A DNA stretch of 59,458 bases, counting the filler. It is 6 parts of 6 records of this genome, joined end to end, with 100 filler letters (N's around TTAATTAATTAA, not from the genome) between each part and the next. Parts side by side here need not be neighbours in the genome. Positions count along the whole stretch, not along the records: positions 31,888 to 39,510 come from SRR31156797_51765; 5 more parts are not named here. The stretch is one strand, 5' to 3'. Positions 1,720 through 51,620 of this stretch are shown piece after piece. Under the pieces are notes generated by a model. It saw nothing but the letters and a program-made list of their open reading frames with translations, did not search any database and was not told the origin of the DNA. A program made the translations under genes and the position numbers. Positions within the stretch are counted from its first letter, which is position 1. Every line of letters begins with the position of its first letter.

Positions 1720-4080
1720 TTATGGAGTAAATGTTAATCCATCACATTTTTTTACCAATTCCATAACATCATCCATCGTAGCCTCGCCGTTGGTTATATA
1801 AGGAAGCTTAATAACAGAATGATCAATCAGGAAATCATTGAACTCAGCCTCGTCCATTGATTTGCCTTCAGGAACAAAACCATCGATCCAGTTGGGAACA
1901 AGCGCTTTCAAGAATTCGCGTGTTTGAGAGTTATCCCAGTATGCCCTGAAAAAAGTATATTCATCAAATTCCAGTGGAACCTCCTGTGTTGATTTGAGCA
2001 CCACTGTTTCGTGTAAACGAATATCCCTTGAAGAGGCTCCTGCAGCGATCACAAATTCGCCGCTTTCGGCAATCCATTGTTCTCTTCGCCCGTCGAAATA
2101 GGAGAAATCCCGGCCTGACAAAGTGAAGGATACCTGTTTTGTTTCACCGGGTTCCATCTCAACTTTCGTAAACTTTTTCAATTCCCTTTCAGGGCGTTGT
2201 AAGGTGCATTTCCGGTCGGTAACATAAAGCTGAACCACCTCTTTTCCTTTGATATCTCCCGTGTTTTTAACTGACAATGAAACGGTAACCACGTCTCTAT
2301 CTGAAAATTCAGTTGCTGAAAGTTTCAGATCAGCATATTCAAATTGGGTATATGAAATTCCGTGCCCAAACGGGAACAGCGGTTCGATCTTTCTTTTATC
2401 GTAATGGCGATAACCCACCAGGATGCGCTCCCCATAAATCACTTCGCCCTGTTCACCCGGGAAGTTAAAAAATGCAGGTGTATCTTCCAGCTTTTCCGGG
2501 AATGTTTCTGCCAGTTTACCTGATGGGTTTACTTTACCAAAAAGCACATCCAGCGTCCCACCGGCCCCGGCCTGTCCGCCAAGCCAGGTTTCCAAAATTG
2601 CAGGAACCTCACTGGCCCACGGCATAGCCACGGCACTTCCGTTTGTTAAAACCACGGCTGTGTTTGGTTGTACCTCAGCAATTTCACTGATCAACTTATT
2701 GTGTGAAGGTGGCAGGTTGATATGTGTTCTGTCGATACCTTCAGATTCATAATGCAATGGGAGACCGGCAAATACCAAAGCGATATCTGCTTTTTCAGCA
2801 ATTTTTACAGCGTCGTCAACCATCGAAAAATCATCATCATCAGTCAGGTTGTAACCCCTGGTGTATTCAATTTTATAATCCCTGCCGTACTCCTTTTCGA
2901 TGAGAGTGAGGATGGCATCCAGTTGTGTTGGTTTTACTTCGGAACTGCCATTGCCCTGGTAGCGGGGGTTTTCAGCGAATTCGCCAATGACAGCAATTTT
3001 TTTGTATTTCTTTTTTGTGAGCGGAAGAACATCCAGATCGTTTTTAAGCAGGGTTGCAGCCTCCGCAGCTACCTGCCTTGCAAACCGGTGATGTGCATCG
3101 GTGTTCTGATCAACACCTTCTTTTTCCAATGCAGTTGCCTTAAAAACAATAGTAAGGATATCACGAACCAGATTATCCAAAACAGCCTCATCCAGGTCAC
3201 CATTTTCAACAGCTTCCACAATCAGCTTATCGTTATAGGTGCTCGCTCCCGGCATCTCGATGTGCATACCTGATTTTACACCCTCTACCCGATTTACAAC
3301 AGCAAACCAGTCGGAGATGACGATACCTTCAAAACCAAACTCATTTTTCAGGACGTCAGTTAATAAATATGGTGATTGCGTTCCATAGATTCCCTGCACA
3401 CGGTTGTAGCAGGCCATCACGGTCCAGGGTTGCGCTTTCTTTACTGCGATTTCAAATGGAGTAAGGTAAATTTCGTGCAGTGTTCGTGTATCCACATCGG
3501 AGTTCATCCACATGCGCATGGTTTCCACGTTGTTGGCCACATAGTGTTTGAGTGAGGTTCCCACACCCTGGCTTTGCACACCGTTGATAAATGCGGCACC
3601 CATTTCACCGGAAAGTACCGGGTCTTCGGAGAAGAATTCGAAATTCCTTCCTCCCAGCACTGAACGTTTGATGTTTACACCGGGGCCAAGCAGCACATTC
3701 ACATCAAGGGCCTGGCATTCCTGCCCAAGTGCCTGACCAACTTCATAGATCAGGTCGGTATCCCAGGTTGCTGCCAGAGCCGAAGCCGTTGGAAAACAGG
3801 TAGCAGGCAGTTGGTCGCCATAACCCGGCAAATTAGTTTTAGGTGCACGCCGCAATCCATGCGGGCCATCTGCAACCCAAATCCAGGGAATGTTGAGCCG
3901 ATCGACAGGTTTAGTGCTCCAATCATCGCGGCCGGAGCAAAGCGATGCTTTTTCTTCGAGCGTAAGCTGAGGAATCAGTTTTTCAACTTGCTGATTAATT
4001 TTTTCCATATCTGCATTTTGAGCATAAATAAAATGAAAAGCAAATAAGATCAAGGTCAGATTAGTAAATTTTCTCATCAT
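1720..4080 (-). CDS. GH3 beta-glucosidase (secreted/periplasmic)
   Basis: DGPHGLR, GRNFEFFSEDP, LKHY, VISDW nucleophile, ESEGIDR, PFGHGISYT, Fn3-like C-terminus; N-terminal signal peptide. Confidence 0.93.
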   Translation of the reverse strand: MMRKFTNLTLILFAFHFIYAQNADMEKINQQVEKLIPQLTLEEKASLCSGRDDWSTKPVDRLNIPWIWVADGPHGLRRAPKTNLPGYGDQLPATCFPTASALAATWDTDLIYEVGQALGQECQALDVNVLLGPGVNIKRSVLGGRNFEFFSEDPVLSGEMGAAFINGVQSQGVGTSLKHYVANNVETMRMWMNSDVDTRTLHEIYLTPFEIAVKKAQPWTVMACYNRVQGIYGTQSPYLLTDVLKNEFGFEGIVISDWFAVVNRVEGVKSGMHIEMPGASTYNDKLIVEAVENGDLDEAVLDNLVRDILTIVFKATALEKEGVDQNTDAHHRFARQVAAEAATLLKNDLDVLPLTKKKYKKIAVIGEFAENPRYQGNGSSEVKPTQLDAILTLIEKEYGRDYKIEYTRGYNLTDDDDFSMVDDAVKIAEKADIALVFAGLPLHYESEGIDRTHINLPPSHNKLISEIAEVQPNTAVVLTNGSAVAMPWASEVPAILETWLGGQAGAGGTLDVLFGKVNPSGKLAETFPEKLEDTPAFFNFPGEQGEVIYGERILVGYRHYDKRKIEPLFPFGHGISYTQFEYADLKLSATEFSDRDVVTVSLSVKNTGDIKGKEVVQLYVTDRKCTLQRPERELKKFTKVEMEPGETKQVSFTLSGRDFSYFDGRREQWIAESGEFVIAAGASSRDIRLHETVVLKSTQEVPLEFDEYTFFRAYWDNSQTREFLKALVPNWIDGFVPEGKSMDEAEFNDFLIDHSVIKLPYITNGEATMDDVMELVKKCDGLTFTP

Positions 4081-4081
4081 G

Positions 4082-6430
4082 TTATAATTTTAGTTTACTT
4101 GGATCATCATAAGTGATTGTTTTTGACATGCTGAATGTATGTTCAAAACCCTCTATTTTCAGGATAAAATCACCCTTTTCGGCAACAAGCCGGTTATTAT
4201 AATTGTAAAAAGCAAAATCCTTTGGAGACAGCACAAAATCTACCGTGGCCGAAGCACCAGGCCCAAGTTCAACCTTGCGAAAACGGCAAAGCCTCTTGTT
4301 ATCCGGAGCTATTGAAGCAACCAGGTCAGCATAGTACAACATCACAACTTCTTTTTCGGTTATCCGGCCGGTGTTTTTCACATCAACCGAAATCTTAATC
4401 TCTTCGCCTGGATTCAGGATATCCTTATCAACAGTAAAATTGCTATATTCAAAGTTGGTATAGCTTAGCCCGGCACCAAACTCATATTGCATGGCCGGGT
4501 GTGAACTGTAATCATAGGCTCCCTGTTTGTTTTCCTGATGTTCGCTGTGTTTATAATCGTAGGTAATCAGATCGTTGGGGTACATCGGATAAGTGTAAGG
4601 TAACCTGCCGGACGGGTTTGCATCGCCAAAGAGGATATCGGCCAGTGCATCGCCGCCATAGTTTGATGGCAGATAGGTCTGGATTACAGCGGCCATCTTT
4701 TCTTCGAATATACTGATAATCCTTGGGCGGCCTTCATTCAGCACCAGTATCACCGGTTTTCCTGTTTCAGCAAGTGCAAGGGCAAGTTGAGCCTGGTTAT
4801 CCGAAATGTATAGATCATTCAGGTCGCCGGGTTTTTCGCAATAACTGTTTTCGCCCAGAAACAGCAGGATGCAATCAATATTTCGCGCAGCCCTAATTGC
4901 TGCAGGGATATCAATATTTTCCTCTTCGTAATATCTCCCGTCCATTTTATAGGAAACACCATCAACATATTTCACATTGCGTTCACCAATTTTTTGTTGG
5001 ATGGCTTCAAGGAAAGTATTGTGTTCTCCGGCAAATTCATCGGCAATGTGCCCCTGCCAGGAATAGGACCAACCCCCGTTCATAGGCCGCATGGTGTTGG
5101 CATTCGGGCCTGCAACCAAAACTTTCACATCTTTTTGTAGTGGAAGTATGTCATCCGTATTCTTCAACAAAGTTATCGATTCCAGGGCAGCTTCAAATGC
5201 CAGGCGTTCAAATTCAGGACTTTTAAATTTGGGATAATCCTTAAGAAAAGTATTTGGCAGCTCAAACAAGCCCAGCTCAAATTTCAGTGTCAAAATTCGA
5301 TTCACAGCTTCATCAATTCTTTCCATCGGCACTTCGCCCTCGTTGACCAATTCGATCAGGTAATCGCAAAATTTGAGGTCATAGGGGACCATCACCATAT
5401 CGATCCCTGCGTTGATACCAATTTTTACAGCCTCTTTGGAAGAAGAAGCAATTTTGTCACGGGAATAAAAGTTTTCAACATCCTTCCAGTCGGTTACTAC
5501 CATGCCCTTAAAGCCCATTTCATTTCTCAGAACTTGGGTAACAAGTTCGTAGTTGGCATGTACCGGTACACCATTGATGATCCCTGAGCTCAACATAATT
5601 GTCCGGGCTCCGGCATCTATCGCAGCCTGAAAGGAGGCGGCATGTTTTTCTTTAAGTGTTCGCACCGAAATTTCCAATGGATTGCGGTCTTTTCCGGAAT
5701 TTGAATTATAAGCCAGAAAATGCTTCAAACAAGCTGCGCCGTGATTTTTATCGATGGCACCTGTTGTTGTTCCCTGCAGTCCGAGTGTGGCTGCGGCACC
5801 CATCTGTCCGGCCAGGTAAACATCTTCGCCAAAGGTTTCCCAAAATCGCGGATCGCGCGGATCACGTCCCATATCCTGAACCGGTGAAAACGTCCATGGG
5901 ATGTTGGATGCCCGCATTTCGTACGCGCTCAATCCATTTAGTTTCCTTACCAGTTCCGGATTGAAAGTTGCTGCCTGCCCGATTTGCTGCGGAAAAAGAG
6001 TGGCTTCAGTAGTATAATTTACGCCATGAATGGCATCAATCCCATAAATTAGCGGGATACCTGTTTCTTCAATCGCCATCTGCTGAAAGTAAGCAACCGT
6101 TTCATTCCACCATTTTGCCGGCCTGGCCCTGCTGTTGACCGTGTTAAGTATTGACCCAACCTTATATTTCCCCAATGCAAGCTGCAGTTTGGCCGTATCA
6201 ATTTCCACAGGTTCATTTTGCTTGCCATCAACTCCATCTTTAATAACCACACCCAGCGTAATCTGGCACATCTGACCTACTTTTTCTTCCAGGGTCATCC
6301 CGGAAAGAATGCTGTCGGCCTTTATCGAGAATGGATTTTCGCGTACAGAAGCCCTGTCATTCTGATTACATGATGTATAGCAGAAAGCTAGTAATGGTAT
6401 TAGTATTAATAAATAATTTTTGTTCTTCAT
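4082..6430 (-). CDS. GH3 beta-glucosidase (BglX-like), probable lipoprotein
   Basis: YGIDAIHG, ETFGED, CLKHF, VVTDW nucleophile, FGAGLSYT; Cys-containing signal peptide. Confidence 0.92.
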   Translation of the reverse strand: MKNKNYLLILIPLLAFCYTSCNQNDRASVRENPFSIKADSILSGMTLEEKVGQMCQITLGVVIKDGVDGKQNEPVEIDTAKLQLALGKYKVGSILNTVNSRARPAKWWNETVAYFQQMAIEETGIPLIYGIDAIHGVNYTTEATLFPQQIGQAATFNPELVRKLNGLSAYEMRASNIPWTFSPVQDMGRDPRDPRFWETFGEDVYLAGQMGAAATLGLQGTTTGAIDKNHGAACLKHFLAYNSNSGKDRNPLEISVRTLKEKHAASFQAAIDAGARTIMLSSGIINGVPVHANYELVTQVLRNEMGFKGMVVTDWKDVENFYSRDKIASSSKEAVKIGINAGIDMVMVPYDLKFCDYLIELVNEGEVPMERIDEAVNRILTLKFELGLFELPNTFLKDYPKFKSPEFERLAFEAALESITLLKNTDDILPLQKDVKVLVAGPNANTMRPMNGGWSYSWQGHIADEFAGEHNTFLEAIQQKIGERNVKYVDGVSYKMDGRYYEEENIDIPAAIRAARNIDCILLFLGENSYCEKPGDLNDLYISDNQAQLALALAETGKPVILVLNEGRPRIISIFEEKMAAVIQTYLPSNYGGDALADILFGDANPSGRLPYTYPMYPNDLITYDYKHSEHQENKQGAYDYSSHPAMQYEFGAGLSYTNFEYSNFTVDKDILNPGEEIKISVDVKNTGRITEKEVVMLYYADLVASIAPDNKRLCRFRKVELGPGASATVDFVLSPKDFAFYNYNNRLVAEKGDFILKIEGFEHTFSMSKTITYDDPSKLKL

Positions 6431-6526
6431 AATTGTTGATGATCTTTACTGAAAGTCCCTCACTATGTATTCAATTCAAAAATAATGGTTTCTCAAATCA
6501 ATCTGATTGTATCAACCTTATTTACA

Positions 6527-6598
6527 GAGACGCGATGTATCGCATCTCAACAGTTAGGTATACTAAACTCTGACAGGGTTTCGAACCCTGTCAGAGTT
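6527..6598. repeat. Two REP-like palindromes between the GH94 and GH3 genes
   Basis: GAGACGCGATGTATCGCATCTC (6527-6548, imperfect) and AACTCTGACAGGGTT-TCG-AACCCTGTCAGAGTT (6566-6598, perfect 15-bp arms). Confidence 0.65.
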
Positions 6599-25641: not shown

Positions 25642-25741
25642 NNNNNNNNNNNNNNNNNNNNNNNNNNNNNNNNNNNNNNNNNNNNTTAATTAATTAANNN
25701 NNNNNNNNNNNNNNNNNNNNNNNNNNNNNNNNNNNNNNNNN
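25642..25741. other. Artificial contig spacer 1
   Basis: N44-TTAATTAATTAA-N44; stop codons in all six frames. Confidence 0.98.
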
Positions 25742-31787: not shown

Positions 31788-31887
31788 NNNNNNNNNNNNN
31801 NNNNNNNNNNNNNNNNNNNNNNNNNNNNNNNTTAATTAATTAANNNNNNNNNNNNNNNNNNNNNNNNNNNNNNNNNNNNNNNNNNNN
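31788..31887. other. Artificial contig spacer 2
   Basis: N44-TTAATTAATTAA-N44. Confidence 0.98.
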
Positions 31888-34087: not shown

Positions 34088-34173
34088 TTCATAAGTTAAA
34101 CCACCCGCTCTACCGGTGGTTACTGATTTTGATAGCGAAGCGGCCTCAAAGCCGCTTCAAAACACACCCGGGT

Positions 34174-34521
34174 TTAATCTTCTACGTATTCCGGGCGCAT
34201 GGGTGTAAAAAATTCTATTACTTCGGCGTCTTCCAGCACTTCCGCGCCATGATATTCATTGGGATCAAAGGTGTATCCGGTTCCGGCCTCGGCCGTGAAT
34301 CCCTGGTCGTCCTTTTTACTGAATCGAACTTTGCCGGAAATAACATAACCGGCCTGCACTGCTTCATGGTTGTGCAGAGGGATTTGCATTCCCGCGGTCA
34401 ATTTGAAATGACAGATCTGCGCCTGGGCATTGTAAGCCAGTGTGGTTCGGACGGCGCCCGGAGGGTTTTCGACTGATTTTGAGGAATCAACAGTTGCAAC
34501 AGGCTTCAATTTGATACTCAT
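34174..34521 (-). CDS. Cupin domain protein (KdgF-like)
   Basis: PLHNHEAVQAGYVISG, PNEYHG, FTPMRPEY. Confidence 0.85.
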   Translation of the reverse strand: MSIKLKPVATVDSSKSVENPPGAVRTTLAYNAQAQICHFKLTAGMQIPLHNHEAVQAGYVISGKVRFSKKDDQGFTAEAGTGYTFDPNEYHGAEVLEDAEVIEFFTPMRPEYVED

Positions 34522-34570
34522 CTTTTTTCCTCCCTTTATTAAACAATCCGCAATTGATCAATTTACAGCA

Positions 34571-35437
34571 TTACATTTTTAAAAGCATATCGTCCAGGTT
34601 GTTTTTTATTCTTAATGCCGTTGAAGGGGCGGCCCGGTATATTCCCAAAGCCGAACGCAGGAAACGGGCAAAGGAAACAGGGATATCCAATTGATGAACG
34701 TATGGACGATTTTCCAATGGAGCGGTTATAACCGGGATTGTCTTTTTTACGAATTGGGTCATTGCCCGCCGGTATTTACTCAAAAATCCCGGATCAAGAA
34801 TATCGGACAGGGTTAAACGGTCCAGCAGCTTTTCAAGGGAATATCCGTCCCGGCCATGGTTAAGCTTTTCATAAAGGTCGGCATATTTATCCCTGTAACT
34901 TAAGCGGTCCAATCCTGCCGGGTCTTCCTCAAACAGGCGTCTTATTATCTTTTCGCCGTACATCAGTAAGTGAAAAGCAGGATTCGTATTGGGGCTTGAA
35001 TATTCAAAAGCATCCAGGCCATGTGTCAGCCGGATAATAAACGATGCTGCTTCGGGATCGAGCTTATCAAAGACGGCCGCTTCCCGGCAGAGTTCACGAC
35101 GGCACTTGGGGCCGTACCCGGTCAGGTCGCGAAGATCCCGCCCCTGGTTTAGGGCGGGATGGAGCAAGCATCCGACCAGTGTTTTTTGACTGCTAAGGAA
35201 GCCGAGCCCCCAACAGGAATCGCCGGGTATCCATTCAGCCTTTTCCAGGTTTTCCTCAAGTCGCAGGGTATTCTCGTCAAGGGTTTTTATCATTTCAGGG
35301 CGATGGTCAATGTGATCGTAATCCGCAGACCTTATGGGCGGGCAGCACCTGAAACAGGAAGCATCGGCGCCGGGGCGGCACAGGCTGGAATAATGACCCG
35401 GGCTTGATTCGTTCCTTATTTCAGTTTTTGCGGCCAT
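34571..35437 (-). CDS. Cys-rich hypothetical protein (YkgJ/CxxCxxCC-like metal or Fe-S cluster domain)
   Basis: C-x7-CxxCC, CWGLGF, GCLLHP, CRRELC (8 Cys in the N-terminal half); start moved to ATG 35437 (MAAKTE) because the longer ORF runs through the atp terminator. Confidence 0.55.
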   Translation of the reverse strand: MAAKTEIRNESSPGHYSSLCRPGADASCFRCCPPIRSADYDHIDHRPEMIKTLDENTLRLEENLEKAEWIPGDSCWGLGFLSSQKTLVGCLLHPALNQGRDLRDLTGYGPKCRRELCREAAVFDKLDPEAASFIIRLTHGLDAFEYSSPNTNPAFHLLMYGEKIIRRLFEEDPAGLDRLSYRDKYADLYEKLNHGRDGYSLEKLLDRLTLSDILDPGFLSKYRRAMTQFVKKTIPVITAPLENRPYVHQLDIPVSFARFLRSALGIYRAAPSTALRIKNNLDDMLLKM

Positions 35438-35461
35438 TTTTCCGTTGTGGTTACGGCGGAT

Positions 35462-35491
35462 AAAAAAACGCGGCCGTATGACCGCGTTTTT
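35462..35491 (-). terminator. Intrinsic terminator closing the Fo operon
   Basis: Minus strand AAAAACGCGGT-CATACG-GCCGCGTTTTTTT, 25 nt after the atpF stop. Confidence 0.8.
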
Positions 35492-35516
35492 ATTGTTATT
35501 CTTTTTTATCAGGCGA

Positions 35517-36104
35517 TCAGGCGGTTTTTGCGTCCGACAGATTATCAAGATAGGATCCGATAATCCTGTCCTGATCCTGCTTGACGATCTGGGTGCGGAT
35601 CAGTTTTTCAGCTTCGTCAATTGTAAGCTGAACAAGTTCCGCCTTAACGTCGTCCCTGGCCTTTTTCAGCCTGGTCTGAGCCAGTTCTTTGGCGTCATTC
35701 ATGATGTGATCGGAATTATTACGCGCGTCTTCGATTATCCGATCCTTGGCCCGCCCGGCTTCTTCCAGGGCCAGCGTTTTAACCTGGCCGATCATGTCCT
35801 CTATCTGGGACAGCTTTTCCTGGGCCGCGTTATATTCCGCTTCCGCTTCCTCAACCATTTTCTTAGTCTGGCTTATCCTGTCTCCGATTTCACCGGACCT
35901 CTGAGCCAGAAAGTCCTTGATCGGCTTTTTTCCCAGCCTGACCACCAGGTAAGCGAGGATGAAAAAGTTAATGAATCTCCAGACCGTGTCCCATATCTTG
36001 CGCCCAGTACTGGGTCCTTCGTCATCGGCCCCGTAGGCGACAATCGGCGCCAGGCCCAGTGTGAGGACAACTACCAGGACTAGAATAATTCGTAGAAACC
36101 TCAT
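35517..36104 (-). CDS. atpF: ATP synthase Fo subunit b (deltaproteobacterial long-leader type)
   Basis: Signal-like leader, WRFINFFIL TM helix, KKPIKDFL..R coiled coil, DQDRII. Confidence 0.9.
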   Translation of the reverse strand: MRFLRIILVLVVVLTLGLAPIVAYGADDEGPSTGRKIWDTVWRFINFFILAYLVVRLGKKPIKDFLAQRSGEIGDRISQTKKMVEEAEAEYNAAQEKLSQIEDMIGQVKTLALEEAGRAKDRIIEDARNNSDHIMNDAKELAQTRLKKARDDVKAELVQLTIDEAEKLIRTQIVKQDQDRIIGSYLDNLSDAKTA

Positions 36105-36529
36105 GTCACTTTCCTGCCCATGACCTTTACGAACACCATATCGACAATGGCGTCCTTGTATTCGCCCATGCTCTCCCGAACCTTCGAGGCCTGTTCTTCC
36201 GCCTCGGCTTGAACCGAAGAGACGTGTTCCTGGGCTTGATTGCGCGCCTGATCGATTATTTCCTTGGCCTGGACCTCGGCTTCGCCTTTAACTTCATCGC
36301 CTTTTTCCGCGGCAGCCTTACGGGCTGTCTGCATTTGCGCTTCAAAGCTCTGAATCTTGCTCTCCGCCTCTTTGCGCAGCGATGTCAGCTTTTCCTTGGC
36401 ATCCGAGATGTGCTTCTCACGTTCTTCGAGAATCCTGAATGTGGGTTTGAACAGAACTCTATTGAGAATCCAGATCAGGATCAGGAAGTTAATCAATTGA
36501 ACCACTAGTGTGGCGTTGATGCTAATCAT
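36101..36529 (-). CDS. atpF: ATP synthase Fo subunit b'
   Basis: MISINATLVVQLINFLILIWILNRVLFKP, coiled coil, KVMGR; 4-nt overlap with subunit b. Confidence 0.9.
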   Translation of the reverse strand: MISINATLVVQLINFLILIWILNRVLFKPTFRILEEREKHISDAKEKLTSLRKEAESKIQSFEAQMQTARKAAAEKGDEVKGEAEVQAKEIIDQARNQAQEHVSSVQAEAEEQASKVRESMGEYKDAIVDMVFVKVMGRKVT

Positions 36530-36578
36530 GCGCCAGTAACTCCGGTTGTTAATGCGGGTAAAAACCCGCAGGCCTAAA

Positions 36579-36827
36579 TTAGACTACAAATATAAGCAGC
36601 AGCGCGACAACGAGGGAATAAATTCCCGTGGACTCGGAAACGGCCTGGCCGACCAGCATGGTCCTGGTCAAAAGACCGGCTTCCCGAGGACTGCGGCCGA
36701 TAGCGGAACAAGCCTGTCCAGCAGCATAACCTTCACCGATTCCTGGTCCAATAGCTCCAAAACCCATTGCCAGACCAGCGCCTAAAAGGGACAACGCCCT
36801 AATGAGGTCAGCACCAGAAATATCCAT
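36579..36827 (-). CDS. atpE: ATP synthase Fo subunit c, single hairpin, Na+-type
   Basis: GxGxGxG (GPGIGEG) with P28/E32 and ESTGIY (E65,S66,T67,Y70); RBS AGGAGG. Confidence 0.95.
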
Positions 36828-36854
36828 GTTACCCTCCTATTTAAGTAAAGACGA

Positions 36855-37826
36855 TTAAATTACGAATATAAGCACCAAGGCAATTACCATGGCGTAAATA
36901 ACTGTTGACTGGGCGACAGCCTGACCGATAAGCATTGTTCTGGTCAAAACGCCGCCGGCTTCTTCATTACGACCGACCCAACGAAGGGTTTCTTCGCCTG
37001 TTATACCATTGCCGAGCCCCGGACCGATTCCGCCGAGCCCCTGGCATAATCCAGCAGCCAGCACGGCCGCTGCCGTGATTATGCTTGCATCCGCGGGAAA
37101 TACCCGGAATATCAGCAATACGCTGACCACAAGACCGAAAATGGATGGGGTTTCCGTAACGGCCTGCCCGACAAGCATCGTTCCGGTAGCCCGGGCCTGC
37201 GCCTGGGGCTGGCGTGCTATTGTTTCACAGGTGGCCCCGGCGATCATTCCCTGACCTATACCGGCCCCGATAGCAGCCAATCCTGTGGAAAAGCCCGCCC
37301 CCAACAGGGCAAAGGCGTTGGGATTGAAAGCCCGGTCGCCGAAATCGAGAAACATCAGCATTAAAGACACGACCAGGGAATAGATGCCCTGGCTCTGGCA
37401 AACAGCCGCGCCAAGAATCATGGTCGTGGTTAATGTGCTTGTGGATGCAGGCTGACGGGCCATGCCTTCGCAAGCCCTGGCCGCCGGGAATCCCGAACCG
37501 ATGCCCGACCCGATAGCCCCGAATCCCATGCAGATGCCGGCGGCGATCAAGGCCACGGCCTTAATCATCTGAGGCGGAAACTGCATGAATATCAGGAGCA
37601 TGGCCACGACCAGGGCGAATATAGCCGTTGATTCGGCTACGGCCTGGCCGATAAGCATGGTTTTTATAGTATCTCCGGCCTTCTCGGGCCTCGAAGCGCA
37701 GGCCTTGTTGGCAAAACCCGCGATGTAACCTTCACCTATGGCCGCCCCGATCGCTCCCAACCCCATGGCCAGGCTTGCGCCGAAATAGCGGGCGCCGGTA
37801 ACCATAACTTCTACATCAAATGCCAT
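36855..37826 (-). CDS. atpE: Quadruplicated ATP synthase c subunit (4 hairpins, 8 TM helices)
   Basis: Four ~80-aa c-subunit repeats with essential-site motifs AESTAIF, CQSQGIY, TETPSIF, AQSTVIY. Confidence 0.92.
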   Translation of the reverse strand: MAFDVEVMVTGARYFGASLAMGLGAIGAAIGEGYIAGFANKACASRPEKAGDTIKTMLIGQAVAESTAIFALVVAMLLIFMQFPPQMIKAVALIAAGICMGFGAIGSGIGSGFPAARACEGMARQPASTSTLTTTMILGAAVCQSQGIYSLVVSLMLMFLDFGDRAFNPNAFALLGAGFSTGLAAIGAGIGQGMIAGATCETIARQPQAQARATGTMLVGQAVTETPSIFGLVVSVLLIFRVFPADASIITAAAVLAAGLCQGLGGIGPGLGNGITGEETLRWVGRNEEAGGVLTRTMLIGQAVAQSTVIYAMVIALVLIFVI

Positions 37827-37843
37827 TAGATGACCCGGGTCCT

Positions 37844-38518
37844 CTACTTGATCTGCACGGAAATGTAGACCAAGGTTAACATGGTGAAAACAAAAGCCTG
37901 AATAGTGCCGACAAACAACCCGAAGAAGGCGTTAAGAAACGGCGGCAGAACAAGACTGTATATCAGATGGCCCACAACGATAATTATGATGCTTCCGCCC
38001 ATGATGTTGCCGTAGAGACGGAATGAGATCGAAACTACCTTGGCAAGCTCTCCGATAATGTTAAGGGGCATCATAAATATGAAGGGCTGAAAATACTGAC
38101 TCAAATAGTCCTTCAAACCCTTAACCTTAATACCCGAATAGTGCGCTATAACAAACCCTAAAAGCCCCAAGCTCAACGGAGTATTGAGGTCCTTGGTCGG
38201 TTCTGAAAAGTAAGGTATGATTCCCCAGATGTTACAGAGCCACAGAAAAAGGAAAAGACCGCAAATCATTGGAAAATACTTGCGGTGGTCTTCAATTTCC
38301 AATGCGTCGTAAACCATGTCGTCGAAAATAGACACAAATAGCTCGGCGACGCTCTGCAAGGGGTTGGGAATCAGCTTGGTCTGCCTTGTGGCCAGAAAAC
38401 CGAACAAGATCAAAACCCCCATGATCATCCAGGTGTTGATCAAGGGAGCCTGATTAAGGGTGATGTCAAGTCCGCCGATAGAAAACTGCCACTGCGGCAT
38501 GTATGTGATTTCTTTCAT
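37844..38518 (-). CDS. atpB: ATP synthase Fo subunit a
   Basis: PTKDLN, PLNIIGE, SISFRLYGN (essential Arg), IQAFVFTML. Confidence 0.95.
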   Translation of the reverse strand: MKEITYMPQWQFSIGGLDITLNQAPLINTWMIMGVLILFGFLATRQTKLIPNPLQSVAELFVSIFDDMVYDALEIEDHRKYFPMICGLFLFLWLCNIWGIIPYFSEPTKDLNTPLSLGLLGFVIAHYSGIKVKGLKDYLSQYFQPFIFMMPLNIIGELAKVVSISFRLYGNIMGGSIIIIVVGHLIYSLVLPPFLNAFFGLFVGTIQAFVFTMLTLVYISVQIK

Positions 38519-38519
38519 T

Positions 38520-38918
38520 TCAGCGCCCTTGTGCGGTCTGGTCGCCCATTAGCCCGTAGCGTTCAATGACCAGACCATAGATGAGAATGGATAACTGTAA
38601 GTTAAAGATGCCGATTGCGGTCCAAATGACGTTAAACTCAGGCAGGCGAAAAGCTGCATACAATGGCAGGGCCATCAAGCCCAGTCGCAGACCGAGCCCC
38701 AAGGCGCTGTGCGCTGTAGCCGATTTGCCTTCTTTACCAAGCCTGTTGGGCGCCTGCCAAGCCATGACAAGGAAGTTGATTAACGAGAAAAAACTTCCCA
38801 GCACAAAACCTTTGGCCGCTGGTTTATATCCAAGCAACAAAGCCCCGCCGCCTACGATTGCGGCGATGACCAGGATTAGTATGATTATAACTTTTTTAAA
38901 TTTTATTAAATCGCCCAT
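38520..38918 (-). CDS. atpI: ATP synthase subunit I (c-ring assembly factor)
   Basis: Four TM helices, GFVLGS..S.INF, position upstream of atpB; start uncertain (ATG 38918 chosen). Confidence 0.75.
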   Translation of the reverse strand: MGDLIKFKKVIIILILVIAAIVGGGALLLGYKPAAKGFVLGSFFSLINFLVMAWQAPNRLGKEGKSATAHSALGLGLRLGLMALPLYAAFRLPEFNVIWTAIGIFNLQLSILIYGLVIERYGLMGDQTAQGR

Positions 38919-38976
38919 AACACAGATACAGAGGAACTCGCCTCCATTTATGTACGCCAGATGTGAAAACAGGAAC

Positions 38977-39005
38977 AAAGTAGTCAAACCAGCGGATTTT
39001 GTCAA
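38977..39005 (-). promoter_or_regulatory. Possible internal sigma70 promoter before atpI
   Basis: TTGACA-17nt-TACTTT on the minus strand. Confidence 0.45.
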
Positions 39006-39025
39006 TAGAAAAGGTTAACCTTTTT

Positions 39026-39283
39026 TTAATCGCCCTTATTTTCCTTGTTTTGGGAGCCTTCGTCCCCTCCGATTTCCATTATCTGCCGGTAAACGGTATA
39101 TCCGCCGCCCACAACCCCCAACAGTATGAAAATAGTAAGAAATATACCTTTTGTACCCAGCCATTTATCAAGGTAATAACCTACGGCGAAACAGAAAACT
39201 ATGCAGCCGGCCATGGTTAATCCCAGTTGGGTAACCAAGGTCATCTGTTCCATTATTTGCTTATATTCCTTACCTTTACGCAA
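39026..39283 (-). CDS. atpZ: AtpZ/AtpI (ATPase gene 1) family protein
   Basis: G...G.YLDKWLGT...F..LG..GG pattern; GGGAGG RBS before the TTG start. Confidence 0.85.
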   Translation of the reverse strand: MRKGKEYKQIMEQMTLVTQLGLTMAGCIVFCFAVGYYLDKWLGTKGIFLTIFILLGVVGGGYTVYRQIMEIGGDEGSQNKENKGD

Positions 39284-39307
39284 TTTAAACGCCTCCCTTA
39301 CTACCTA

Positions 39308-39336
39308 ATTCTAACAACGACCGGGTTCACAGTCAA
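39308..39336 (-). promoter_or_regulatory. sigma70 promoter of the Fo operon
   Basis: TTGACT-17nt-TAGAAT on the minus strand, about 25 nt upstream of atpZ. Confidence 0.7.
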
Positions 39337-39510
39337 TGTCTGCTTTAGTCCGTTAAAAAAGGTACAAAGTAATCCGTCAAATTGCCAAACGTTAAAAGCC
39401 GCCTATTTGTAAACCGAGAAAATCGCCGGATTGAGAAATTGAAAACCCGCCCGAAATTATAAGTGCGAGTTACGGATGAACTTATAGTGGTTCTCAAAAG
39501 TATTTTCCAA

Positions 39511-39610
39511 NNNNNNNNNNNNNNNNNNNNNNNNNNNNNNNNNNNNNNNNNNNNTTAATTAATTAANNNNNNNNNNNNNNNNNNNNNNNNNNNNNNNNNN
39601 NNNNNNNNNN
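39511..39610. other. Artificial contig spacer 3
   Basis: N44-TTAATTAATTAA-N44. Confidence 0.98.
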
Positions 39611-40406
39611 CGATCTCTTCATTGACCTGCATGGTGCCCAACTGTGCGGCAAAGGCGGCACCTGTCCGCCCGGCCATGATGATTCCGGCCATGACGGCTC
39701 CCATGACACGGACCATTGCAATCCCCACCAGGTTGGCCACGTATATCTGAGCACCGAACATCATCAATTGGACCGCCCCCACAAAGGCGAGAATCAGACC
39801 CACCAGCAGGCTGATGAGGGAGACAATGGGAAGGGCTTCAATGCCGCAGTCCTGTATGATCCGGGTCAGATCAGAGCGGCGGAAGCGGGCTTTTCCGGCC
39901 AGGAACCGGGTAAAGGCCGTGAAGGTTTCACCCACAAAGGCGAGTGCTTCCCCCGAGGAGTGAAAAAATGCCATTGATTTGGCACCCACTCGAAAAAGAA
40001 ATGTCTCTTTTCGTGATTTTTTCCGGGCGCCTTCTTTTTCCGGCACTGCCGCCGCGAGATCCAGGAGTTTTCCGGCGCCATCAGGCAGGCCGGTTTTGTC
40101 AATGTCGATACCATATTTTGAAGACAGATCGCTCAACCGGCCAAGGAATATGAGAAGGGCACTGTCCCAGTCCGTAACGCCGGTTGCATTAAAAGCAATT
40201 CCAATGGTGGTGTGCCTAGTCATCTCTTTTTTGACGAGATCGGCTGAAGGACGTTTGTATTTAAGGGTCCAGCTTCCGGAAAGGTTGATCAGAAGCGTTT
40301 TTTTATCAGAACGGTCAAAAGAAAGCGCACAATCCTGTGACTCTGAATCGGTTGTGCCGGCGGTATGGCGGTATGGCTTCATGAAGGTACGATCCGGTGT
40401 ATGCAC
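39611..40406 (-). CDS. mlaE: MlaE family ABC permease with STAS-like N-domain (3'-truncated by gap; start uncertain)
   Basis: DWDSA, ALPIV.L...LVG.ILAF.G..QL..FGA, GRTGAAFAAQLGTMQVNEEI. Confidence 0.88.
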
Positions 40407-44911: not shown

Positions 44912-45011
44912 NNNNNNNNNNNNNNNNNNNNNNNNNNNNNNNNNNNNNNNNNNNNTTAATTAATTAANNNNNNNNNNNNNNNNNNNNNNNNNNNNNNNNN
45001 NNNNNNNNNNN
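44912..45011. other. Artificial contig spacer 4
   Basis: N44-TTAATTAATTAA-N44. Confidence 0.98.
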
Positions 45012-51520: not shown

Positions 51521-51620
51521 NNNNNNNNNNNNNNNNNNNNNNNNNNNNNNNNNNNNNNNNNNNNTTAATTAATTAANNNNNNNNNNNNNNNNNNNNNNNN
51601 NNNNNNNNNNNNNNNNNNNN
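51521..51620. other. Artificial contig spacer 5
   Basis: N44-TTAATTAATTAA-N44. Confidence 0.98.

Follow-up and report, generated by a model that had tools for sequence, protein, structure and literature searches.

We describe an operon for the membrane sector (Fo) of a rotary ATP synthase that occupies positions 39336-35457, on the minus strand, of a 59,458-nucleotide stretch of DNA, here called the window. Six contigs make up this pseudomolecule, and the operon lies on one of them, the 7.6-kb atp contig (31888-39510; record SRR31156797_51765). The host of the operon is a Desulfobacterota genome. Taking the gene sequences together with gene counts in related genomes, we consider it probable that this is an accessory Fo module, which stands beside a canonical set of split atp genes, has no catalytic sector (F1) of its own and most likely assembles on the single F1. 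The module encodes its own assembly factors (AtpZ and AtpI), the channel subunit a, the stalk subunits b' and b, and a two-gene rotor that includes c4x, in which four c hairpins are fused in one polypeptide. A preliminary description of this DNA, made from its letters alone, had proposed such an accessory, Na+-type Fo with its own stator and without F1, and the evidence from relatives supports it. More tentatively, we suggest that many Desulfobacterales could combine one F1 with two interchangeable Fo sectors, the length of the fused c fixing the number of ions per ATP and the choice of operon expressed shifting the gear and perhaps the coupling ion.

From promoter to terminator, the operon contains the following features.

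39308..39336, minus strand: sigma-70-like promoter, TTGACT-17-TAGAAT with TG before the -10 hexamer, 10/12 matches
39026..39283, minus strand: atpZ, small membrane protein of the ATPase_gene1 family (PF09527, 2.6e-18)
38520..38918, minus strand: atpI, c-ring assembly factor family (PF03899, 2.1e-11, residues 40-134 of the long open reading frame); start assigned as likely
37844..38518, minus strand: atpB, Fo subunit a, 224 amino acids (PF00119, 2.3e-51)
36855..37826, minus strand: atpE4x, encoding c4x, 323 amino acids, four c hairpins in one polypeptide (four PF00137 stretches, 6.6e-61)
36579..36827, minus strand: atpE, one-hairpin c, 82 amino acids (PF00137)
36101..36529, minus strand: atpF', subunit b', 142 amino acids (PF00430, 3.2e-15)
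35517..36104, minus strand: atpF, subunit b, 195 amino acids (PF00430, 4.9e-15)
35457..35491, minus strand: intrinsic terminator with an 8-bp GC-rich stem, a 4-nucleotide loop, a U7 run and an A-run ahead (bidirectional shape)

Pfam identifies the seven Fo and assembly genes in the order first proposed for them, all on the minus strand. The hallmarks of a membrane sector are present: a PF00119 subunit a with its conserved stator Arg, within ...SFRLYGNIMGG..., PF00137 c subunits with the helix-2 carboxylate and R-x-P loops, and PF00430 b and b' subunits. The genes are tightly packed, with 1 nucleotide between atpI and the gene for a and a 4-nucleotide overlap between the b' stop and the b start. 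Translation of atpZ starts at a TTG preceded by a GGGAGG Shine-Dalgarno sequence. For atpI, the ATG at 38918 is the likely start rather than the TTG at 39005, where the reading frame opens, because the AtpI of a relative aligns from the internal Met. The TTGACT-17-TAGAAT promoter noted earlier is indeed there, 25 nucleotides from the atpZ start, and this position suggests its function. It is the top of five promoter-like sites in 34400-39700, and since shuffled sequences give 5.7 +/- 2.7 such sites, the match alone is not significant.

At the other end, the strong terminator described 25 nucleotides past atpF holds up: its hairpin (35491-35464) follows the stop codon (35519-35517) at that distance and folds at -18.8 kcal/mol (z = -3.1), with none of 200 shuffles as stable. 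A terminator-like hairpin within 200 nucleotides of the b stop is also found in six of nine relatives. The atpH-A-G-D-C genes of a whole-enzyme operon are absent from this transcription unit, which is closed by the terminator after atpF. Consistent with the early statement that atpH/A/G/D/C are missing, a window-wide tblastn search with a relative's proteins finds no F1 gene and no second Fo gene, and the other five contigs carry no atp genes. The unrelated genes that had been placed on the same contig do follow the operon downstream; upstream there are none, as the contig ends 174 nucleotides before the -35 hexamer.

To establish how many F1 and Fo sets occur together, genes were counted in relatives of the source genome, with the pieces of split genes merged into one before counting. 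A c4x scan of species-representative genomes yielded 15 loci, 12 of them in Desulfobacterota; the genomes include the complete 4.83-Mb chromosome of a Desulfarculia metagenome-assembled genome (MAG; G001), whose c4x is 82% identical, and Desulfosarcina cetonica JCM 12296. All 12 Desulfobacterota loci have the order atpZ-I-a-multi-hairpin c-c-b'-b as far as the contigs reach, and an atpZ orthologue heads the operon in 11 of the 12. No F1 genes lie within 10 kb of the module at loci L001-L013; F1 genes follow downstream only at two distant loci in Planctomycetota, both of them ordinary operons that have a single c.

In G001, two complete Fo sets accompany a single F1, so the comparison that had been set in advance, F1 against Fo sets, comes out in favor of an accessory module. 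The chromosome has alpha and beta genes at 1.2049-1.2079 Mb and nowhere else (FliI and Rho account for the remaining two PF00006 matches), and there is one gamma, one delta and two a genes. The c genes occur in two places, the accessory locus and 1.646 Mb, and four b-family genes are split between delta (two) and the accessory a and c (two). Pfam identifies a canonical atpF'-F-H-A-G-D-C set and a canonical atpZ-I-B-E set. This split, earlier attributed to many deltaproteobacteria, is seen in G001 and nine other relatives; the accompanying rule that atpF is normally followed by atpH was too general.

The same excess of a over gamma is found in 11 of the 13 genomes holding L001-L013. Gamma and a number one and two in five genomes (G001, G003, G006, G007 and G009), two and three in three (G002, G011 and G012), one and three in G008, and zero and one in G005, while G010 has a gamma fragment against three a genes; the count is one to one in G004 and G013. 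In a further sample, fifteen carriers with large contigs picked from 89 genomes of the order of D. cetonica that are positive for a multi-hairpin c, a exceeds gamma in all fifteen, by one in 13 and by two in G078 and G021. Overall, a outnumbers gamma in 26 of the 28 genomes that bear the module. The control consisted of the first 20 genomes listed for the same order that lack the module, and a equals gamma in 19 of them; the exception, G042, gives no multi-hairpin c match but has two a genes and one gamma.

Any second or third gamma scores low, and within a few kb on its contig lies an a that scores just as low. The extra gamma of D. cetonica sits in a cluster with the N-ATPase order beta...a-c-b-alpha-gamma, and from co-location we infer that the extra gamma and a genes of the other genomes likewise belong to N-ATPase-like clusters. 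No dedicated second F1 for the module was found in the relatives counted, in line with what had first been supposed. The third a of G008 belongs to a second canonical-type a-c pair; this MAG has two such pairs beside the accessory module (L051 and L052, on G008:C12 and G008:C9; 54-57% identity to the canonical a of G001), a doubling that could be due to duplication, strain mixture or contamination.

These counts bear directly on a simple operon split, in which the organism would have no Fo besides the module and would carry F1, and perhaps more b genes, elsewhere. Such an arrangement predicts equal numbers of gamma and a, which is the case in 2 of 28 module-bearing genomes as against 19 of 20 module-free genomes. 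It draws some support from the five window contigs without atp genes, the counts resting on relatives only, and from G004 and G013, two related MAGs with one a and one gamma. The Brocadiia (Planctomycetota) MAG G013 also carries a module without b genes that resembles an ordinary Fo half. In addition to the closest complete genome and the overall excess of a, the stator genes speak against a split: all nine canonical F1 loci examined open with their own b'-b-delta, making the b'-b pair of the module a surplus stator. Furthermore, accessory a subunits form a tight group, with 57-81% identity to their own reference and 31-37% to canonical a, whereas canonical a sequences are 54-57% identical among themselves. 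We therefore regard a simple split as very unlikely.

The Brocadiia module (L056, on G013:C167 at 3982-6559, and L055) reads atpZ-I-a-c3x-c with no b genes after it, and its single c has the motif Q...ESTGVY. A single a gene was found in this MAG, beside an ordinary b-delta-alpha-gamma-beta-epsilon operon, which is a weak indication that rotors of this kind can operate on a standard F1.

In the rotor subunit c4x, hairpins 1 and 3 retain the helix-2 carboxylate, a Glu, whereas hairpins 2 and 4 carry Gln at this site (AESTAIF / CQSQGIY / TETPSIF / AQSTVIY). Among 33 four-hairpin sequences, Q144 in hairpin 2 is invariant (33/33) and Q302 in hairpin 4 is kept in at least 90%. The loops of hairpins 1 to 4 are SRP, RQP, RQP and RNE and that of the single c is RSP, so that R-x-P is kept in four of the five window hairpins and lost in c4x hairpin 4 (GRNEEAG). 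The c4x hairpins are 34-47% identical to one another in amino acid sequence and 60-75% in DNA, as expected for old copies. Because of this divergence, and because the operon recurs on a contig from a second study (~97% identity; 176 substitutions and five indels over 34128-39500), the fusion is not an assembly artifact. An AlphaFold (AF2) model of c4x has a pLDDT (predicted local distance difference test) score of 94.6 and is helical throughout, with twelve DSSP helix segments that may be read as four helical hairpins, or eight transmembrane helices. Among solved structures, the sole match to the model at E < 0.001 is c1 of Acetobacterium woodii, covering half of the model, followed by V-type proteolipids.

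The single c carries the two-carboxylate Na+ motif GIGEGY ... SESTGIY, and E...[ST]ESTGIY is kept in 12/12 Desulfobacterota orthologues. Its best solved relatives are A. woodii c1 (2.3e-34) and c2 (4.3e-21), Fusobacterium nucleatum c (1.4e-20) and Ilyobacter tartaricus c (7.6e-20), which bears out the initial assignment of c to the Na+ type with its E...ESTxxY motif. By contrast, canonical c has Q...ESLxxY and is one ligand short of the Na+ rule, taken here as it appears in the accessible text of a preprint (10.64898/2026.10.01.756066).

A protein search for the c4x family gave 2538 matches among 7999 scored candidates. Carboxylate patterns were scored for the best 120 of these plus the window, with E for a hairpin that keeps the carboxylate and o for one that has lost it. 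Four-hairpin sequences are EoEo (23) or Eooo (6); five-hairpin sequences are Eoooo (59) or EoooE (14); and six-hairpin sequences are Eooooo (15), EooooE (3) or ooEooo (1). The 5x and 6x subunits, of ~405 and ~485 amino acids, have a single helix-2 carboxylate in 59/73 (Eoooo) and 15/19 (Eooooo) cases, and, judging from their motifs (EE-SQ-SQ-GQ-NQ and the like), they may have lengthened as one dead hairpin was duplicated repeatedly.

As in A. woodii, a multi-hairpin c with carboxylate-free hairpins is encoded beside a one-hairpin c. The accessible text of two papers describes one A. woodii ring made from two kinds of c (PMC9171764, PMC7911925), nine single c and one c1 (PMC9171764). This precedent raises the question of whether the accessory c, and perhaps other subunits, might mix into the canonical Fo and tune one ring, with no separate second Fo. 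Accessory and canonical c are 39-43% identical (43% in G001), and in G001 both have the same RNP loop, as such mixing would favor. However, the module brings every Fo component (Z, I, a, two c, b' and b) in one predicted transcription unit, partly translationally coupled, and the whole set is conserved across the order; mixing would need no second a, b or b'. We judge this supply of spare parts to be unlikely.

In the remaining subunits, identity between accessory and canonical proteins of G001 is 35% for a, 29% for b' and 28% for b. The window's own a and b' are 34% and 29% identical to canonical a (that of G001) and canonical b', respectively. The subunit a scores 138 bits with TIGR01131 (cut-off 102.6), and its matches in the PDB (chloroplast and Bacillus PS3) do not discriminate its origin. 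Identity as an N-ATPase was considered and rejected: scores with the NCBIfam N-ATPase models are far below those required for a (136 vs 302 bits), c (67.6 vs 130.85) and b (41 vs 224.7), and the gene order differs from atpDCQRBEFAG. The module b has a signal-like leader, one transmembrane segment and a C-terminal I...D...R[IL]I..YL motif. Accessory and canonical b have in common the leader, an NF..L membrane segment and a C-terminal I...D...[RK]L[IV]..Y[LI], and D177 of b is invariant in 17/17 accessory and canonical sequences; the deltaproteobacterial character first ascribed to b and b' is borne out by these features. The shared C-terminal motif and the R-x-P loops suggest that the module is competent to meet F1.

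This competence matters for another alternative, namely that the Fo works alone, for example as a gated Na+ or H+ conductance or as a rotor for another partner. F1 genes are never linked to the module and Fo is in constant excess over F1, both of which would fit such a use. Yet b and b' keep the long soluble helices and C-terminal motif of canonical b, the c loops keep R-x-P, and in G001 no PF00006 proteins exist apart from alpha, beta, FliI and Rho. Free Fo, as known from Escherichia coli, is also a leak that cells avoid. An F1-independent role appears to us quite unlikely.

Regarding distribution, a multi-hairpin c occurs in 89/151 sampled genomes of the order of D. cetonica (E <= 1e-30) and in 28/301 genomes sampled across the phylum. 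Open frames of ~162-163 (two genomes) and ~239-246 amino acids (three genomes) in the phylum sample fit two and three hairpins in size, as judged by length alone. In two contiguous genomes (G080:C1:2370839-2374146 and G141:C1:928609-931742), the multi-hairpin c is upstream of a, so the gene order of the module varies. In Desulfobacterales the module is flanked by divergent haem-synthesis genes and, in 4/8 loci examined, by convergent clpB. The chromosomal place is stable, and no mobile-element genes were seen in the flanks examined. The same flanks hold no Na+-related genes; instead there are haem-synthesis genes, clpB and sensor kinases.

This distribution, with the state of the genes, makes a decaying duplicate or a recently transferred passenger without function highly improbable. 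In its favor, the extra set of Desulfococcus oleovorans is viewed, in the accessible text of an earlier study (PMC4154653), as a species-specific duplication or possible transfer. All seven frames, however, are intact in the window and in 12 related loci. The two of the five indels relative to the second-study strain that fall in the operon span are both intergenic (35501, and 38948, upstream of the atpI ATG at 38918), while the other three are in or beside the unrelated downstream cupin and 288-amino-acid genes. Gln in place of Glu is likewise conserved in the dead hairpins, with Q144 invariant (33/33).

If the module is an accessory Fo that shares the single F1, its set would assemble as a unit, aided by its own AtpZ and AtpI. 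The accessory b and b' would bind the single delta and the accessory ring the single gamma/epsilon, and the outcome would be a second, Na+-coupled F1Fo isoform on alpha3 beta3 gamma delta epsilon. If the A. woodii enzyme is a guide, c4x and c probably mix in the ring, where dead hairpins would lower the number of ions per ATP; each c4x would remove two ion sites, and the commonest 5x and 6x forms four or five. With the block of dead hairpins genetically fixed (2/4 here and up to 5/6 in relatives), the ion/ATP ratio would be hard-wired below that of any characterized F-type enzyme, and the choice of Fo operon could change the gear, and perhaps the ion, without touching F1. By simple thermodynamics, a lower ion requirement per ATP would favor ATP-driven Na+ export against a steep gradient, or would restrict synthesis to a high Na+ motive force. 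We leave the direction of work unassigned because enzymes with V-type c are described, in the accessible text of PMC9171764, as making ATP from 87-90 mV. A Na+ cycle is plausible in these bacteria, as the accessible texts on marine sulfate reducers report Na+/sulfate symporters (PMC5109826) and Rnf in the core genome (PMC11887813).

Several points weigh against an accessory Fo on a shared F1. The canonical set and single F1 of the source genome are extrapolated from relatives, the closest of which has 82% c4x identity, and the contacts of b and b' with delta and of the ring with gamma/epsilon are likewise predictions. Two MAGs with the module, G004 and G013, both incomplete, have equal numbers of a and gamma, and a multi-hairpin rotor can there belong to the only Fo found. 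In G078 there are two a genes and gamma was not found, and G021 has three a genes and only a low-scoring, N-type-like gamma. As canonical c lacks just one of the Na+ ligands, a swap of ion may be wrong even if a swap of motor is right. Finally, if the single-carboxylate 5x and 6x forms made up most of a ring, the ion/ATP ratio would be too low for synthesis.

The six contigs of the window are joined by five N44-TTAATTAATTAA-N44 linkers, at the positions given here.

25642-25741, 31788-31887, 39511-39610, 44912-45011 and 51521-51620: linkers, N44-TTAATTAATTAA-N44
34571-35437, minus strand: 288-amino-acid Cys-rich protein (CFRCCPP...), directly past the terminator, with no Pfam or NCBIfam match

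The GC content is 0.40-0.47 across 1-25.6 kb of the window and 0.61-0.63 at 46-50 kb, a contrast suggesting that the bin may mix organisms. In the last ~30 nucleotides of the atp contig (39477-39510), word depth is ~1200 versus ~50 elsewhere, and several contigs from two independent assemblies start or stop there, which implies that assembly is interrupted by a short high-copy repeat immediately before the promoter. An Rfam search of the atp contig returned no family. Past the 3' end of the operon lie, by Pfam, the 288-amino-acid protein without family, a cupin and a 3-hydroxyisobutyrate-dehydrogenase-like gene. The 288-amino-acid gene has the same position only in the two closest relatives (L001 and L007; 48% identity) and not in Desulfobacterales; it is not counted as part of the Fo system.

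Each organism is usually assumed to have a single rotary ATP synthase, whose ion/ATP ratio is fixed. A shared F1, if true, would be a new way to tune energy coupling in bacteria near the thermodynamic limit, including marine sulfate reducers. F-type c subunits of two to six hairpins with one or two carboxylates also extend the hybrid-rotor principle of A. woodii well past the solved and assayed cases, and the family offers a natural series for the effect of dead rotor positions on synthesis thresholds. A cultured carrier exists in D. cetonica JCM 12296. A literature search found no report of a multi-hairpin F-type c or a shared F1 in Desulfobacterota, though a 2015 review of hybrid rotors may list some, and no account of the breadth or ion motifs of the module. 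In its accessible text, the October 2026 preprint (10.64898/2026.10.01.756066) states that F-type rings consist "predominantly" of single hairpins and gives A. woodii as its sole example of a mixed ring.

The closest known relative of the rotor is the Na+ F1Fo of A. woodii and Clostridium aceticum (double-hairpin c1 with c2/c3; PDB 4BEM), which has the same order of a, multi-hairpin c and one-hairpin c with atpI ahead, a Na+ motif and Gln for Glu in the dead hairpin. A. woodii is the best sequence and fold match for both module c proteins, and AtpI is presented as an assembly factor in operons of this type in the accessible text of PMC7911925. Unlike the double-hairpin c1 of A. woodii, the multi-hairpin c of the module has four hairpins (relatives range from two to six) and no more than one or two carboxylates, and the helix-1 residue is Glu, giving two carboxylates, where A. 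woodii has Gln. The module also has b' and b in place of one b, lacks H-A-G-D-C and, going by the relatives, would be surplus beside a canonical Fo. By alignment, the c of F. nucleatum (PDB 3ZK1; PMC3692424) has the same GIGEGYAAG ... ESTGIYSLV ion-site residues as the single c, but, as far as the accessible text goes, it forms one homomeric ring from one complete operon.

The module as a whole most resembles the ectopic set of D. oleovorans, an extra a-c-b'-b without F1 in the same order of bacteria. In the accessible text of Koumandou and Kossida (2014; PMC4154653), this set is a "double 0A-0C-0B'-0B" with no F1 subunit duplicated, in which the extra a and c group with Thermotogae and b with deltaproteobacteria. 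That grouping matches the mosaic impression given by the module, so the bare observation is not new, and the D. oleovorans set is presumably orthologous. Multi-hairpin c, Na+ motifs, atpZ and atpI, breadth and function are not mentioned for it in that text.

The N-ATPases (atpDCQRBEFAG in the accessible text of Dibrova et al. 2010, PMC2881411) similarly place a second, Na+-type two-carboxylate c beside a canonical F1Fo, and several module-bearing genomes carry an N-ATPase too; the module differs in having no alpha, beta, gamma, epsilon or atpQ/R of its own. Ordinary split operons, such as the deltaproteobacterial atpZIBE and atpF'FHAGDC, likewise include an Fo-only unit closed by a terminator, which is normal there. 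Alphaproteobacteria divide the genes into atpIBEXF and atpHAGDC. In contrast to these ordinary splits, in which the Fo unit is the only one, the Fo of the module would be additional and holds both halves of the membrane sector.

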